Origin: an uncultured Candidatus Saccharibacteria bacterium
Lineage (GTDB): Bacteria > Patescibacteriota > Saccharimonadia > CAILAD01 > GCA-016700035
Reading direction: 5' to 3'
NCBI GenBank assembly: GCA_964535385.1
Contig: CAZHSY010000003.1
Span: forward strand, 18,529-82,528
Length of the DNA: 64,000 nt
Each line of letters opens with the position of its first letter. Within the stretch, counting starts at the first letter, position 1. Below, piece by piece: positions 33,781 to 64,000 of the stretch. The translations under genes were made by a program, and so were the position numbers. The notes beneath the pieces were generated by a model, which searched no databases, was not told where the DNA came from, and saw nothing but the letters and a program-made list of their open reading frames with translations.

Positions 33781-33865
33781 TATCAATATCTGGTGCGGAT
33801 GAAAGGACTTGAACCTTCACGCCTTGCGGCACCAGCTCCTAAGGCTGGCGTGTCTACCAATTCCA
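33781..33865 (-). tRNA. tRNA-Leu (anticodon TAG), type II with a long variable arm and an encoded CCA
   Basis: Reverse complement is GCGGATGTGGTGGAATTGGTAGACACGCCAGCCTTAGGAGCTGGTGCCGCAAGGCGTGAAGGTTCAAGTCCTTTCATCCGCACCA. Cloverleaf stems were identified by eye. The anticodon loop is CTTAGGA. Confidence 0.85.
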
Positions 33866-33875
33866 CCACATCCGC

Positions 33876-58858: not shown

Positions 58859-58889
58859 CCACCCCTTGGTTGAGAGGGGTGGTTTTTTA
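58859..58889 (+). terminator. Intrinsic terminator (CCACCCCT-N8-AGGGGTGG followed by T6) ending the plus-strand island
   Basis: Perfect 8-bp GC-rich stem plus a T-run. Confidence 0.7.
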
Positions 58890-59195
58890 TGGCTGTGGTT
58901 GCACGGTTGGCTTTGGCACGTTGTCATTTAGATCGTTCACGAAATTACCCACCCAGGGTACGCCGCCAAAAATAACTACGAGGTAGCCGATCAACACGAC
59001 AGCCAAGGCCACGCCGACCACACCACCAATTCCCCGATACACCCCAGCCCTAAAATTAAGCCAAGCAAATTTTCGTCTATTTTCAAGCAGCTCAATAAAT
59101 TCAGCTGACGCAAATATATTAGCTACTCTTGTAGCTTCTGAAAGGTCAGTTGCTGAGGATGCTTTCTTCGAGGATGGTTTCGAGCGCGTAGCCAT
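58887..59195 (-). CDS. Hypothetical membrane protein (102 aa)
   Basis: One or two transmembrane helices (GIGGVVGVALAVVLIGYLVVIFGG). Confidence 0.5.
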   Translation of the reverse strand: MATRSKPSSKKASSATDLSEATRVANIFASAEFIELLENRRKFAWLNFRAGVYRGIGGVVGVALAVVLIGYLVVIFGGVPWVGNFVNDLNDNVPKPTVQPQP

Positions 59196-59216
59196 TGTGG
59201 TCTAGTGAGGAAATAA

Positions 59217-59801
59217 CTATCGTTTCTTAGTTGTAGCCTTCTTGGCCGTTGCAGTTGTCTTCTTAGCGGCCTTCGCGGCAGTATTCTTGGCTGTATTGGC
59301 GGCTTTCCTGACGGCTTGAGTAGCTTTCTTGGTAGTCACTTCAGCTTCTTCGGCTACAGAATCAGTCGACTTCTTAACTGCTGTGGCGGCTTTCTTAACT
59401 TCACGACTCGTACTCGTGCCGAGCTGCTTGGCTAAGACGTCGAGCTCTTCAATCAGGCCACGGCCTTCTTCCACCAGGCGTCCAGCCTCGCCTACCACGT
59501 CTTCTTGAGAATCTTGAGCAACACTGCTCATTTTGAGAGCCGTCGCATTCAGCTGCTCTTTCATACGCTCAGCCCGCTTAATTAAGGCCTTGGTTTCTTT
59601 AACTGAGTCGTCTTTGACACGTACACTAGAGACTTTAATCTGATCAAGTGTGGTGCCGAGACGATCTTTGACTTCATCAAAATTCTTCTGCAGGTCATCA
59701 CGAGTTTCTTTGCCGCTCTTCGGAGCAAATAGTAATGCTGCCAGGCCAGCCGCAGCCGCACCGATGATTGTTCCCTTGATAAATCCGCCTTTTTTGCTCA
59801 T
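59217..59801 (-). CDS. YtxH-like stress protein: N-terminal transmembrane or amphipathic segment plus Ala/Lys-rich coiled-coil repeats
   Basis: GG-rich hydrophobic N-terminus followed by a long helical region with repetitive KKAAT(A)V tracts. The ORF-track start is 59831. Confidence 0.55.
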   Translation of the reverse strand: MSKKGGFIKGTIIGAAAAGLAALLFAPKSGKETRDDLQKNFDEVKDRLGTTLDQIKVSSVRVKDDSVKETKALIKRAERMKEQLNATALKMSSVAQDSQEDVVGEAGRLVEEGRGLIEELDVLAKQLGTSTSREVKKAATAVKKSTDSVAEEAEVTTKKATQAVRKAANTAKNTAAKAAKKTTATAKKATTKKR

Positions 59802-59805
59802 GACA

Positions 59806-60072
59806 CTACCTCCGTTTACGCCCCCGACCACCGGCTGTTGCCTTCAAGATCTGAGCGAAAATAGCACTCATGGTCATGGGGTTAATGATCTTTTCTTTGA
59901 CTTCGTGAATAATATCGGCCGCCGTCTTGGTGCCATCCTGAGCAATCTCGGCTATACGCTGAATCGTCTGGATAAGCTTGCGAGCCGCGAAGAACACCAC
60001 GATCATGATCGTGATAAGTATCAGTACAGCTACTGATAGGACGAGTAGCAAGAAAAATAATACGGTATCCAT
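59806..60072 (-). CDS. DUF948-like small membrane protein (88 aa)
   Basis: Single N-terminal transmembrane helix, then a helical region. Adjacent to the YtxH-like gene, as in Firmicutes. Confidence 0.5.
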   Translation of the reverse strand: MDTVLFFLLLVLSVAVLILITIMIVVFFAARKLIQTIQRIAEIAQDGTKTAADIIHEVKEKIINPMTMSAIFAQILKATAGGRGRKRR

Positions 60073-60075
60073 GAA

Positions 60076-60741
60076 TTACTTATTCCCCTTAGTCATTACT
60101 GTGGGTATTGTAACAGCTTTCGAGCTACGGGTGCGAATCACCGCCCGTTGTCTGACTCGACGTTCTCGATCTTGCCCAGCACGCTCGACTAGTTCAAATG
60201 CATTTTTATCAATCAAGCTGTTTGGCACCACAAAAATCGTGCCATTTTTATCCTTGAGACGGCTTTTGCGCATATCCATATCAATAATAATGCCCTCTGT
60301 CTTTTGATCATTTGGCCCGACCTTAACCCGATCACCAATCCGGAAATGCCGATCTCGGGCTAAATTAAAACCCGAAATCATATCGCTGACCGTACCAGCC
60401 AAAGCCTGTGACAAACCGAGGGCAAAGACTGCAAAGCCACCCGACAAGGCCAGAGCTACGTTACTTAAGCCCAAACTCTGCAGAATAGCAATACTCAGCA
60501 GGAAGTATAGTCCCGCATCAAGCAGTCGAATGGCCACCTTGATCAAGCCCTTAGGCAATCGTGTAAGACCCAGCAAACGAACTAATATGACCGAAGCCAC
60601 GCGAACCACAAAAAAGCCTATGACGATATAAAAAATAGCGTTCACAAGCATTGGCCAGCCACCGGTAAAGAGTCCCGTAAGTTCACTCACAACCGCCTGT
60701 GGGGCTGGTGAGGCGACGGGAATAATTGCTAAAACACTCAT
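60076..60741 (-). CDS. Small-conductance mechanosensitive channel (MscS family), 221 aa
   Basis: Three transmembrane helices followed by the MscS β-domain (…FRIGDRVKVGPNDQKTEGIIIDMDMRKSRLKDKNGTIFVVPNSL…). Confidence 0.8.
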   Translation of the reverse strand: MSVLAIIPVASPAPQAVVSELTGLFTGGWPMLVNAIFYIVIGFFVVRVASVILVRLLGLTRLPKGLIKVAIRLLDAGLYFLLSIAILQSLGLSNVALALSGGFAVFALGLSQALAGTVSDMISGFNLARDRHFRIGDRVKVGPNDQKTEGIIIDMDMRKSRLKDKNGTIFVVPNSLIDKNAFELVERAGQDRERRVRQRAVIRTRSSKAVTIPTVMTKGNK

Positions 60742-60911: not shown

Positions 60912-62345
60912 TTACAGGTTATTCTTAATAATGTCGTTAACGAGCTGGGGATTAGCTTGGCCGCGTGTTTCTTTCATTACTTGACCAACGAAGAAGCCGA
61001 GTGCTTTGGCATTACCTGCCCGGAAATCTTCCACCGCCTGCGGGTTGGCAGTAATGACTTTCTGTACAATGTCAGCTAATTCGGCTTCGTTAGAGTTCTG
61101 TTTCAGACCCAGCTCTTCAATGAGTACTACGGGGGTCTTACCCGTCTCATACATAGCCGCAAAAACTTGCTTGGCCATCTTACTTGAAAGCTCGCCAGCT
61201 AATTCGCGCTCGACTAGGTCACGCAGATCATTACCGGTGAATCGAACTTCAGCGACTTCTGCTTCACTGGTAGCCGCTCGATAGTCACCAATCAACCATC
61301 CAAGTACCTTGCGCACACCGTTATCGGACAAGCCGACTCGAGCCTCAGAAAAGAGTTTTAGGGCGACAGGATCTTCGATCAAGATGTCTTGCTCATCTAC
61401 CTTAAGTCCCAATTCGACCAGCTCGTGGCGGATAGCTAGAGGCAGGGGCTGAGCATCGAGAGAGACCTGCTGAGCCACCTTCATAGCTTCAGTGATAACC
61501 AGTGGCGGAATATCCGGCTCTGGGAAATAGCGATAATCATGAGCCTCTTCTTTGCTGCGCTGTGAGAATGTCTTACCCTTGCCGTCATCCCAGCCGCGAG
61601 TTTCCTGGTCGATTACGCCGCCATTTTCGAGGACCTCAATCTGTCGAGCAATCTCATAGGTTAGAGCCCGCTCGCCATTGCGAAATGAGTTAAGATTCTT
61701 AAGCTCAGTGCGGGTACCGAGGCGTGCTTGATCATCTGATACCGAGACATTGAGGTCAAACTTAAAATTGCCATGCTGAAGCTGGCCATGCGTCACACCA
61801 AGCGTGGTAGCAATCGCGTAAATCTCCTGCAGATACCGTCTAGCTTCTAGTGGCGTATGCATATCCGGCCGAGACACGATCTCAACCAAGGGCGTTCCAG
61901 CCCGATTGAGATCCACCAGCGAGTAGTCCTTGCCGGCTGGGTGCGACAACTTACCAGCATCCTCTTCCATGTGAGCCCGCTCGATACCAATGCGCTTAAA
62001 TTCGCCATCAACCAAAATCTCAATCCAGCCATCTTCGACGATCGGCTTATCAAACTGCGTAATCTGATAGCCCTTAGGATTATCTGGATAGAAGTAGTTC
62101 TTACGATCGAACTTGGTGTCATGTCGAATTGTCGCGTTCAAACCAAGGCCCAAGCGGATAGCCAACTCCACAGCGTGCTTATTTGGTAATGGTAGCGTCC
62201 CTGGATAACCAAAACAAACTGGACAGACGTGCGTATTTGGCTTGGCGTCTATCGAGTTATTATCGCAAGCACAAAACATCTTTGAGTTTGTTGCCAGCTG
62301 AACATGAATCTCGATGCCAATGGTAGGTGTGTATTTTGAGCTCAT
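60912..62345 (-). CDS. gatB: Asp/Glu-tRNA(Asn/Gln) amidotransferase subunit B
   Basis: 477-aa ORF with the GatB N-terminal domain (…IGIEIHVQL…) and a C-terminal YqeY-like domain. Confidence 0.95.
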   Translation of the reverse strand: MSSKYTPTIGIEIHVQLATNSKMFCACDNNSIDAKPNTHVCPVCFGYPGTLPLPNKHAVELAIRLGLGLNATIRHDTKFDRKNYFYPDNPKGYQITQFDKPIVEDGWIEILVDGEFKRIGIERAHMEEDAGKLSHPAGKDYSLVDLNRAGTPLVEIVSRPDMHTPLEARRYLQEIYAIATTLGVTHGQLQHGNFKFDLNVSVSDDQARLGTRTELKNLNSFRNGERALTYEIARQIEVLENGGVIDQETRGWDDGKGKTFSQRSKEEAHDYRYFPEPDIPPLVITEAMKVAQQVSLDAQPLPLAIRHELVELGLKVDEQDILIEDPVALKLFSEARVGLSDNGVRKVLGWLIGDYRAATSEAEVAEVRFTGNDLRDLVERELAGELSSKMAKQVFAAMYETGKTPVVLIEELGLKQNSNEAELADIVQKVITANPQAVEDFRAGNAKALGFFVGQVMKETRGQANPQLVNDIIKNNL

Positions 62346-62797
62346 ACTGAGACCCCGAGATCTCTAAGGCCCTGACCGAGCTTGGCCACGGCTTGCTCCA
62401 CCTCGCGCGGCACGACGTCGATGTGAACTTCGTGGGCATATTGATTGCGCAGCTTATGAGCCGCCCATATGCCGTTTAGGTCGGAGAATTTCGAGCCACC
62501 GGACTTTAAACGCTCTCCCATCGTATCACCGTGAAAGCCCTTGGCTTGCATGACATGATCAAGCAACTTATCAGCTTCGATAAGAGCGTTCTTCAGGCCC
62601 GACCCGCCTGATTTCATCATCTGCTGAATCTCGGTCCAATGACGAGTTACAAATTCCGTATCCAGCGTCGGCTGCGGGCTATCAGGTGAGTCATCGAAGG
62701 TTGCCTTATCGCGAGACCGGCCTCCGGAAGCATTGCTCATGTAGGCCAAGAGACCACCAATCACGACTACTGCCAAAATCATTGATAGAAACGTCAT
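62342..62797 (-). CDS. Membrane-anchored hypothetical protein (151 aa) inserted between gatA and gatB; has an Rx4H (HEPN-like) motif
   Basis: N-terminal transmembrane helix and an HKLRNQYAHEVH motif near the C-terminus. 4-nt overlaps with both gatA and gatB. Confidence 0.55.
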   Translation of the reverse strand: MTFLSMILAVVVIGGLLAYMSNASGGRSRDKATFDDSPDSPQPTLDTEFVTRHWTEIQQMMKSGGSGLKNALIEADKLLDHVMQAKGFHGDTMGERLKSGGSKFSDLNGIWAAHKLRNQYAHEVHIDVVPREVEQAVAKLGQGLRDLGVSV

Positions 62798-64000
62798 ACC
62801 GCCCGATCCTCCAATACCACGGCAAGTTCAGTCTGAGCTGCGGTAGCTGCCTGCAAAAGTAGCTTATCCTGCTGACGAGCCGCCATAAATTGCAAACCAA
62901 GTGGCAAGTTGTCCGAACCGGCTAAAGGTATAGAGATCGCTGGTATACCAGCTAAGTTCGCACCGACTGTCATAATGTCGGCCAGATACATCGCGATTGG
63001 ATCAGTCGTATTGTCGCCCAGCTTGAAAGCAGCCGTCGGCGTAGTGGGGCCAAGCAGTACGTCATACTGACGAAATGCATCATCAAAATCTTGCCGGATC
63101 AGCGTCCGAACTTGCATGGCCTTCTTGTAACAAGCATCGTAGTAGCCGGCTGAGAGAGCATAGGTACCAGTTAAGATACGTCGCTGCACCTCAGGTCCGA
63201 GCTTCTCTCCCCGTGTGCGATTATAACCAGTCGTGACATCGCTAGCCGTCAGGGATGCTCCATAGCGAATACCATCATAGCGCTCTAAATTAGACGAAAT
63301 CTCAGCTGGTGCCACGACATAATAGCACGGCAAAGCCTTTGTCAGCTGTGGCAAACTGATTTCATCAATCGTCCAGCCAGACGCCTGAAGCGTAGCGAAT
63401 ACCTTTTCATAAACCGCCGAGACATCAGGCGCGATTCCATCAAGATATTCTTTAACAATTGCAGCCCGTTGCGGTATGGCCGCCCCACCAAAGTCGATTG
63501 TCTCGAGGCCTATCGTCGTAGCATCATTCTCATCTCGACCAGCCATAATACCGAGCAAGAGAGCCGCATCCTCGACACTATTTGCAAAAGGACCAACCAC
63601 ATCGAGCGAGCTCGCCATCGCTACCACGCCATAGCGTGAAATCACGCCATAGGTCGGCTTTAAGCCCACCACACCACAGAAAGCGGCTGGCTGGCGAATA
63701 CTACCGCCGGTATCTGTACCGATTGAGAATAACCCTACCCCAGCCGCCAGAATAGCTGCCGAACCACCAGAACTACCACCAGGTACACGGCCTAGATCAT
63801 GGGGATTGCGGGTCGGACCGTAGCTGGAGTATTCGGTGGAGCCACCGTGGGCAAATTCATCCTGGTTGACCTTGGCGATACAGATCGCACCAGCTACTTC
63901 GAGCTGACGAACTGCTGTACCGGTATAAGGAGCTGTAAACTCATCGAGTATCCGACTAGCAGCCGTAGTACGTACTCCTTCGATGAGGAACATGTCTTTG
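62794..64000 (-). CDS. gatA: Glutamyl-tRNA(Gln) amidotransferase subunit A (C-terminal ~400 aa; 5' end off-window)
   Basis: Amidase signature GGSSGGSAA with Ser-cisSer-Lys context. The ORF reaches the window edge. Confidence 0.9.
   Translation of the reverse strand, partial: KDMFLIEGVRTTAASRILDEFTAPYTGTAVRQLEVAGAICIAKVNQDEFAHGGSTEYSSYGPTRNPHDLGRVPGGSSGGSAAILAAGVGLFSIGTDTGGSIRQPAAFCGVVGLKPTYGVISRYGVVAMASSLDVVGPFANSVEDAALLLGIMAGRDENDATTIGLETIDFGGAAIPQRAAIVKEYLDGIAPDVSAVYEKVFATLQASGWTIDEISLPQLTKALPCYYVVAPAEISSNLERYDGIRYGASLTASDVTTGYNRTRGEKLGPEVQRRILTGTYALSAGYYDACYKKAMQVRTLIRQDFDDAFRQYDVLLGPTTPTAAFKLGDNTTDPIAMYLADIMTVGANLAGIPAISIPLAGSDNLPLGLQFMAARQQDKLLLQAATAAQTELAVVLEDRAV

Follow-up and report, generated by a model that had tools for sequence, protein, structure and literature searches.

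Bacterial HEPN domain proteins that are associated with the membrane have been described before. Anantharaman et al. (2013; PMC3710099, section 15) distinguished three groups of them, whose predicted role is RNA processing at the inner membrane surface; one of these groups has a single N-terminal transmembrane helix. The protein described here resembles these groups in architecture and differs from them in genomic setting. It is encoded in a 64,000-nucleotide stretch (all of which we call the window) of contig CAZHSY010000003.1, from an uncultured Candidatus Saccharibacteria bacterium of the class Saccharimonadia. The list of open reading frames (ORFs) of the window places an ORF of 151 amino acids, here called X, on the minus strand at positions 62342 to 62797, between the amidotransferase genes gatA and gatB. 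From the motif R-x4-6-H (Rx4-6H) a first-pass annotation had guessed that X was a HEPN-type RNase domain such as HepT, DUF86, or Abi. Our analysis indicates that X is very probably a member of the HEPN superfamily (Pfam clan CL0291). We regard this assignment as well supported because the predicted fold, the placement of the motif, the sub-threshold matches to HEPN-clan profiles, and a published ECOD assignment all agree. The X family is large and Patescibacteria enriched, and X itself is most likely a vertically inherited core protein of the class Saccharimonadia.

Like X, the three membrane groups combine one or more transmembrane segments with a cytoplasmic HEPN domain and an intact Rx4-6H motif (PMC3710099). 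The combination of a transmembrane helix with a cytoplasmic HEPN domain was already anticipated there, and X does not represent an entirely new category of system. The differences lie in detail and in distribution. The DUF4145-like group with a single helix has a strictly conserved WP in its transmembrane domain, whereas X has none, and among 149 cluster representatives of the X family only 6 have a WP upstream of the domain. Moreover, the described groups are sporadic and of a signaling or conflict type, whereas X is a clade-wide core gene fixed in gatCAB, and insertions in its counterpart in Southlakia epibionticum reduce fitness.

Among characterized proteins, the HepT toxin SO_3166 (PDB 5yep) shares with X a four-helix fold (TM-score 0.61 to 0.65 in this comparison) and an R-N-x3-H-[D/E] core on the penultimate helix, which reads GLRNIAVHDY in SO_3166 and KLRNQYAHEV in X. 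HepT works with an MNT partner; X has no MNT, and has instead a membrane anchor and two further invariant residues, H114 and W111. X also lacks the conserved Tyr that follows the motif His in HepT, where this Tyr is the site of AMPylation. The commonest sub-threshold matches of the X family, although not of X itself, are to the Swt1/Abi2-clade HEPN (PF18731), Hypoth_Ymh (PF09509), and RiboL-PSP-HEPN (PF18735) families, which are typically fused to, or found in operons with, restriction-modification, Abi, and ATPase modules (PMC3710099). As functional analogues only, with no homology claimed, Ire1 and RNase Y are endoribonucleases with an N-terminal membrane anchor and a cytoplasmic catalytic domain, an arrangement that X would share if its predicted activity is real; the KEN domain of Ire1 is itself a HEPN-type domain (PMC3710099). 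Ire1 differs from X in its lumenal sensor and kinase domains, and RNase Y in its HD domain. X differs in kind from every prokaryotic HEPN system so far characterized: it is a clade-wide, fitness-relevant gene that lacks a partner, is not mobile, and holds a fixed place in a translation operon.

To compare X with the defining features of HEPN domains given by Anantharaman et al. (PMC3710099), we used an AlphaFold2 (AF2) model. The soluble domain (residues 47 to 151; 62345..62659, minus strand) was modeled with a mean predicted local distance difference test score (pLDDT) of 94.5 and a predicted TM-score (pTM) of 0.89, with helices at 4 to 17, 21 to 42, 50 to 60, 64 to 79, and 87 to 103 of the domain model. 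In this predicted structure, helices a1 to a4 form the four-helix up-down bundle of two alpha-hairpins that is characteristic of HEPN proteins, and the helix at 50 to 60 (MGERLK) is an insert between a2 and a3, as in other HEPN domains. R117-x4-H122 makes up the last six residues of the helix spanning residues 107 to 122 and is followed by a loop (residues 123 to 129), so that the Rx4-6H motif lies at the end of helix 3, where HEPN domains have it. The polar residue expected directly after the conserved Arg is the invariant N118, and D76, likewise invariant and located in helix 2, is a candidate for the conserved acidic residue of that helix, which in HEPN domains lies near the motif in space. 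When the model was searched against the PDB with Foldseek, all matches with a TM-score above 0.55 were HEPN proteins, Csm6 among them, while non-HEPN helical bundles scored below 0.5. The top match was AF_0298 (2hsb; probability 1.00, E value 0.042), and TM-scores of 0.61 to 0.65 were obtained for six solved HEPN proteins, namely 2hsb, 1o3u (TM0613), and the HepT toxins 5yep, 7bxo, 8yuf, and 8xdj.

Conservation across the family points to the same residues. We found 187 close homologues, all of about 150 amino acids, and a profile of the soluble domain retrieved 2,627 clusters at 50% identity; with this many relatives, ORF X is far beyond a chance reading frame. At least 548 species-representative genomes carry X, nearly all of them Saccharimonadia and human oral TM7 included. 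When 54 close members were aligned, R117, N118, H122, H114, W111, D127, and the stretch A75-D76-K77-L78 were invariant. Across the 149 cluster representatives, which have 26 to 54% identity to X, six residues were still strictly invariant: D76, W111, H114, R117, N118, and H122. The catalytic-type motif W111-A-A-H114-K-L-R117-N118-Q-Y-A-H122 occupies the C-terminal end of helix a3 (62432..62467, minus strand). It contains HKLRNQYAHEVH, the stretch singled out by the first-pass annotation, and its R117 and H122 codons were checked by hand at 62447-62449 and 62432-62434, respectively. Asp76 is encoded at 62570..62572 (minus strand), within the EADKLLD segment of helix a2.

At the level of sequence, the evidence for a HEPN relationship is convergent, with each piece weak alone. 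Among the 149 members, the only globular Pfam families that recurred as near-matches were HEPN_Swt1 (15 members), Hypoth_Ymh (10), HEPN_RiboL-PSP (10), and HEPN_Cthe2314 (3), and the HEPN near-matches fell on the motif helix; the DUF4145 family, PF13643, was not among the recurrent matches. The best of them was a match to HEPN_Swt1 with an E value of 1.6e-4 in a single member, which was not among two batches of members scanned. In PADLOC, near-matches were to the HEPN parts of the Csm6, Csx1, and CARF_HEPN models, the best at 1.8e-4, in 2 of 42 members. A single PF01934 match (1 of 42 members; E value 0.022) did not reach its threshold. Comparing consensus sequences of the family with Pfam yielded no useful match, and weak matches to bS20 and SecA, which lay on the linker and the helix 1-2 region, were regarded as compositional noise.

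Several results temper the assignment. No Pfam family was matched at its gathering threshold, the scores seen being at most 13.9 bits against cut-offs of 25 to 28. Searches of Pfam, NCBIfam, and the PDB sequences with X alone gave no curated match, and profile searches against the PDB sequences retrieved no HEPN protein significantly. We also compared the family with HepT by hhalign, using an alignment of genuine PF01934 proteins gathered with a DUF86-like probe, which served only to retrieve them. The best result was marginal (P = 0.005, probability 7%, 86 columns, with the motif in register), and across runs the probability ranged from 2 to 7% and P from 0.005 to 0.02. The Foldseek E values, too, are weak, 0.042 being the best. 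Membership in HepT/DUF86, the Abi families, or DUF4145 specifically is thus not supported. The first-pass guess consequently holds for the superfamily, given the fold, the motif, and its invariance, but not for HepT/DUF86 or Abi, which were matched at no curated threshold. The checks that it proposed came out similarly: Pfam HEPN-clan profiles gave recurrent near-matches to HEPN families but none at threshold, and the structural model placed R117 and H122 at the end of helix 3 of a HEPN fold. Neither of the outcomes that it named as counting against HEPN occurred, since no unrelated family was assigned by profiles and both the Arg and the His were invariant in the 149 representatives.

The N terminus of X is hydrophobic, as the first-pass annotation had recognized in calling it a transmembrane helix: AF2 gave a helix at residues 2 to 23 (62729..62794, minus strand) with a Kyte-Doolittle mean of 2.28. 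In the close family, Lys and Arg average 0.02 before this helix and 4.4 in the 15 residues after it, and in the wider family 0.23 before and 3.7 after. Because basic residues are near zero before the helix and abundant after it, the positive-inside rule predicts an N-out/C-in topology, with the X domain facing the cytoplasm. A signal peptide was rejected, since there is no basic n-region. In the close family S5, A9, V12, and L16 are conserved on one face of the helix. Between the helix and the domain lies a linker (residues 24 to 46; 62660..62728, minus strand) that is basic and then variable and disordered, with pLDDT below 50 for residues 25 to 40 and with a length and sequence that vary in the alignments. 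A clear transmembrane helix is present in at least 74% of representatives and a few look soluble; an N-terminal extracytoplasmic extension of more than 20 amino acids is present in 12 of the 111 members that have the helix.

The junctions of X with its neighbors were read directly. On the plus strand, tcat at 62794-62797 and at 62342-62345 corresponds to ATGA on the coding strand, so that 4 nt are shared by the gatA stop and the X start (62794..62797, minus strand) and another 4 nt by the X stop and the gatB start (62342..62345, minus strand). A GGAGG element that resembles a Shine-Dalgarno sequence, and may act as one, lies inside the 3' end of gatA, 10 nt 5' of the X ATG (62808..62812, minus strand). 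The 3' part of gatA occupies 62794..64000 (minus strand), where the gene leaves the window at its end, and gatB (477 amino acids) occupies 60912..62345 (minus strand). Both assignments are genuine, and counterparts in relatives carry the expected Pfam domains: Amidase for gatA (at locus L004, where gatC comes before it) and GatB_N plus GatB_Yqey for gatB. On longer contigs that encode an identical protein, the gene order is gatC-gatA-X-gatB-mscS.

This arrangement extends throughout the class. The order gatC-gatA-X-gatB was present in essentially all 80 Saccharimonadia species sampled. In 88 loci, whose X proteins have 33 to 100% identity to X, gatA was directly upstream in essentially all and gatB directly downstream in most. 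Of 86 measurable gatA/X junctions, 57 overlap, by 4 nt in 45 and by 1 nt in 12; most of the remaining values are artifacts of start-codon choice. The X/gatB junction is a 4- or 1-nt overlap in 49 loci. In 12 species, extra small genes follow X, often with overlapping starts, and never intervene between gatA and X (L032, L040, L042, L043, L044, L046, L049, L050, L055, L059, L086, and L087). Judged by eye, the genes between X and gatB include histidine-phosphatase-like, NUDIX, PNPOx-like, HAD-like, CoaE, and GIY-YIG proteins.

As a control, we examined 80 other bacterial gatB loci obtained by a metagenome scan with GatB, mostly from generic bacteria rather than Saccharimonadia. X was present in a single, Saccharimonadia-like locus and absent from the other 79; where gatA was upstream of gatB (31 unrelated bacterial loci), the two genes were contiguous in 28. 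Because the control loci almost all lack X and mostly have contiguous gatA and gatB, the insertion of X is lineage specific and ancient. About 10% of the sampled unrelated gat operons have some other small gene between gatA and gatB, and insertion in itself is therefore not unique. By eye, one such gene (L138, about 1492-1884) resembles the 23S-rRNA-intervening-sequence four-helix-bundle protein, and another locus (L146, about 832-1615) has a DUF948-like membrane protein and a YtxH-like protein in this place. Across 62 loci, identities of X correlated with those of GatA (rho 0.59) and GatB (0.60) nearly as those of GatA did with GatB (0.69); X therefore co-diverges with GatA and GatB, which indicates vertical inheritance. 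We found no X homologue in phage and plasmid records and no paralogue within the window, where X is single-copy. The first-pass annotation had thus read this neighborhood accurately, in that X overlaps both neighbors by 4 nt, in that gatA and gatB are normally contiguous, and in that the arrangement is worth looking for in relatives, where it is conserved.

A protein in the same position is already on record in a cultivated relative. SEML1_0535 of Southlakia epibionticum has 139 amino acids and lies between gatA and gatB with overlaps of 4 nt and 1 nt (PMC10633639, Tables S1/S2). It was assigned by DPAM (0.99) to ECOD e1wtyA1, with the label "Nucleotidyltransferase substrate binding subunit/domain," and by ProtNLM (0.98) as "DUF4145" (PMC10633639); DUF4145 is listed as a HEPN-clan family (PMC3710099). 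Its domain spans residues 26 to 135, after an N-terminal segment, which is the same architecture as that of X (PMC10633639). SEML1_0535 would be the ortholog of X, judging from operon position, size, and junction overlaps. The ECOD group to which it was assigned is the HEPN fold. In the supplementary tables, SEML1_0535 is a "hypothetical protein"; it is undiscussed in the paper, whose main text uses the word HEPN 0 times (Wang et al. 2023, PMC10633639). Searches of the literature for Saccharibacteria with GatCAB and for Patescibacteria with HEPN found no description of the X protein, and the family has thus appeared before only as an undiscussed row of a supplementary table.

The same data bear on fitness. 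SEML1_0535 is flagged as a core family and as Patescibacteria enriched, and its transposon insertion sequencing (Tn-seq) calls are GD/GD/ES, with reads falling from 126.6 to 5.9 to 2.8 (PMC10633639). At T0, we calculated by hand from PMC10633639 about 301 reads/kb for SEML1_0535, compared to about 35 for gatB, about 11 for gatA, and about 1,736 for a neutral neighbor; by T2, insertions in SEML1_0535 were as depleted as those in gatA. That insertions in SEML1_0535 were tolerated better than those in gatA or gatB at T0 speaks against a fully polar effect on gatB. The annotation of Southlakia includes neither an Asn- nor a Gln-tRNA ligase, and GatCAB therefore handles both tRNAs. The GatB and GatC rows among SEML1_0534 to SEML1_0537 are flagged "Patescibacteria enriched" in Table S1, as is the counterpart of X (PMC10633639), which suggests that the whole amidotransferase module is lineage divergent.

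Taken together, we think it somewhat probable that X is a cytoplasm-facing, membrane-tethered housekeeping endoribonuclease with a HEPN fold, carried as a vertically inherited core protein. X is co-transcribed with GatCAB, and the overlap of both its start and its stop with the neighboring genes fits translational coupling and matched expression. It would dimerize as HEPN RNases do, perhaps aided by the small-xxx-small face S5xxxA9 of its transmembrane helix. As an enzyme, it would cleave RNA independently of metal, with His as the general base, Arg and Asn stabilizing the transition state, and a 2',3'-cyclic phosphate as the product. Alternatively, X may at least be a module that binds RNA at the inner membrane surface. 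An attractive candidate for its substrate is tRNA(Asn/Gln) or the transamidosome, because of the operon context and because the HEPN proteins PrrC and RloC are anticodon nucleases; X may instead act on a more general class of RNA or have a non-catalytic role, given that distant members occur in non-gat contexts and that Southlakia has both RNase Y and RNase J.

A number of observations count against such an enzyme. Some HEPN domains are non-catalytic binders (PMC3710099). Southlakia already has RNase J and a non-essential RNase Y, leaving no obvious RNase gap, and for this reason we rejected the simple idea that X substitutes for RNase Y. The Tn-seq depletion of SEML1_0535 could partly be a polar effect on essential gatB, and the orthology that connects these data to X is based on position, size, and junction overlaps, not on sequence. 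Five distant members (P0171, P0186, P0225, P0233, and P0265) apparently lack the transmembrane helix. Finally, 4 of the 7 distant members sampled lie outside gat operons, and a fifth is on a contig too short to tell. The contexts of distant members (X') are gatC-gatA-X' without gatB; X'-gatB-mscS without gatA; X'-lgt-trxB-dsbA; signal peptidase, an unknown gene, X', and coaE; and X' standing alone. In Saccharimonadia, X is therefore strongly linked to gat genes; the linkage turns up elsewhere too, without being universal.

Two of the rival explanations keep the HEPN fold and change its role. X could serve GatCAB and the transamidosome as an accessory subunit or a regulator specific to this lineage, for which the operon offers much: gatA adjoins X, with overlapping stop and start, in essentially every Saccharimonadia locus down to 33% identity, the extra genes come only after X, X co-diverges with both GatA and GatB, and distant members may still adjoin one gat gene. 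The late Tn-seq time points, at which the Southlakia counterpart behaves like gatA and gatB, the lack of an annotated Asn- or Gln-tRNA ligase there, and the tRNA anticodon nucleases PrrC and RloC among HEPN enzymes (PMC3710099) fit as well. However, the distant members outside gat operons, and the two split cases in which X is separable from gatA and from gatB, speak for independence from GatCAB. No fusion with a Gat subunit was seen among the 150 best representatives, all of at most 228 amino acids, and other small genes occupy the same place in about 10% of unrelated operons. GatC is present, so X replaces no known subunit; a replacement of GatC itself was rejected because gatC is upstream in all long loci. 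We consider an accessory role unlikely, and somewhat less likely still the specific proposal that X is a fourth, hitherto unrecognized member of the tRNA-dependent amidotransferase pathway in Patescibacteria, a HEPN module docking GatCAB or the transamidosome at the membrane. The other way to retain the fold is to make X a non-catalytic scaffold or ligand sensor at the membrane, with its gat position incidental and due to streamlining or shared expression. Non-catalytic HEPN domains exist, for example in MtlR and at the C terminus of nucleotidyltransferases (PMC3710099), the published label of SEML1_0535 names a substrate binding subunit, genomic contexts vary in the wider family, and the extracytoplasmic extension of 12 of the 111 helix-bearing members could sense signals. 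Such domains typically lose the Rx4-6H residues (PMC3710099), whereas the Arg, the Asn, both His, and the helix-2 Asp of X are invariant in all 149 representatives, the pattern expected of an active site, and we find this reading rather improbable.

The remaining rival, which the first-pass annotation had raised as an option, is that a toxin-antitoxin or abortive-infection system has settled in the gat operon, with X as its HEPN toxin. The HEPN proteins of prokaryotes are for the most part toxins (PMC3710099), the structural neighbors of X include HepT toxins, and PADLOC gave weak matches to the HEPN regions of Csm6 and Csx1. Almost everything about the gene contradicts this: in 88 loci its neighbors are gatA and gatB, and neither an MNT nor any other antitoxin gene adjoins it; the window contains a single copy of X, which is inherited vertically together with GatA and GatB, occupies a fixed position in at least 548 species, and has no homologue on phage or plasmid records; PADLOC matched no defense model at a meaningful level; and transposon disruption of the Southlakia counterpart is deleterious, not neutral. 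A toxin is therefore very improbable. X behaves as a core gene rather than as a toxin-antitoxin or defense module, and its identity as a toxin is largely refuted. The membrane-tethered housekeeping endoribonuclease is the reading that we prefer.

Several further features of the locus and of the wider family were recorded. In the window, a conserved block 3' of gatB (58887..60741, minus strand) encodes an MscS-like channel (60076..60741), an 88-amino-acid transmembrane ORF (59806..60072), a YtxH-like protein (59217..59831), and a DUF5665-like protein (58887..59195). At L001 to L007, gatB is likewise followed by a comparable block, with dnaE next, and in Southlakia, too, a YtxH gene (SEML1_0531) lies near gatB. 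A tRNA-Leu gene (anticodon TAG; 33791..33875, minus strand) was the sole RNA gene detected in the window, and a scan of the window found no Rfam elements near the gat operon. In the non-gat subfamily, an unknown protein of 184 to 201 amino acids is encoded before X' (L096:1186-1740 and L089:1407-2012), overlapping it by 1 nt in L096 and lying 3 nt apart in L089; it gave weak hints of bPH_2, a bacterial PH domain (E values of about 0.01 to 0.05). The gene coaE follows X' in L089 and X in L087. The gene for P0171 is preceded, at a distance of 52 nt, by a cyclophilin gene and is directly followed by gatB.

Prokaryotic HEPN proteins are known almost exclusively from conflict systems, namely toxin-antitoxin and abortive infection systems and CRISPR ancillary nucleases, whereas X is a fitness-relevant, class-wide gene. 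It is tethered to the membrane and fixed in the operon for indirect tRNA aminoacylation of ultra-small, host-dependent bacteria that include human oral TM7. The family comprises more than 2,600 clusters at 50% identity, has a model in neither Pfam nor NCBIfam, and merits a curated profile. Southlakia epibionticum is genetically tractable and naturally competent, and its Tn-seq data already cover the protein in the same position, so the role of X is directly testable. Should X prove to be an active RNase, it would be a candidate for a Patescibacteria-specific housekeeping RNA-processing enzyme and would belong to the "enriched, essential, unknown" class of genes that defines Patescibacteria biology. 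Were X instead to dock GatCAB or the transamidosome, indirect aminoacylation in these ultra-small epibionts would be spatially organized and policed by an RNase.

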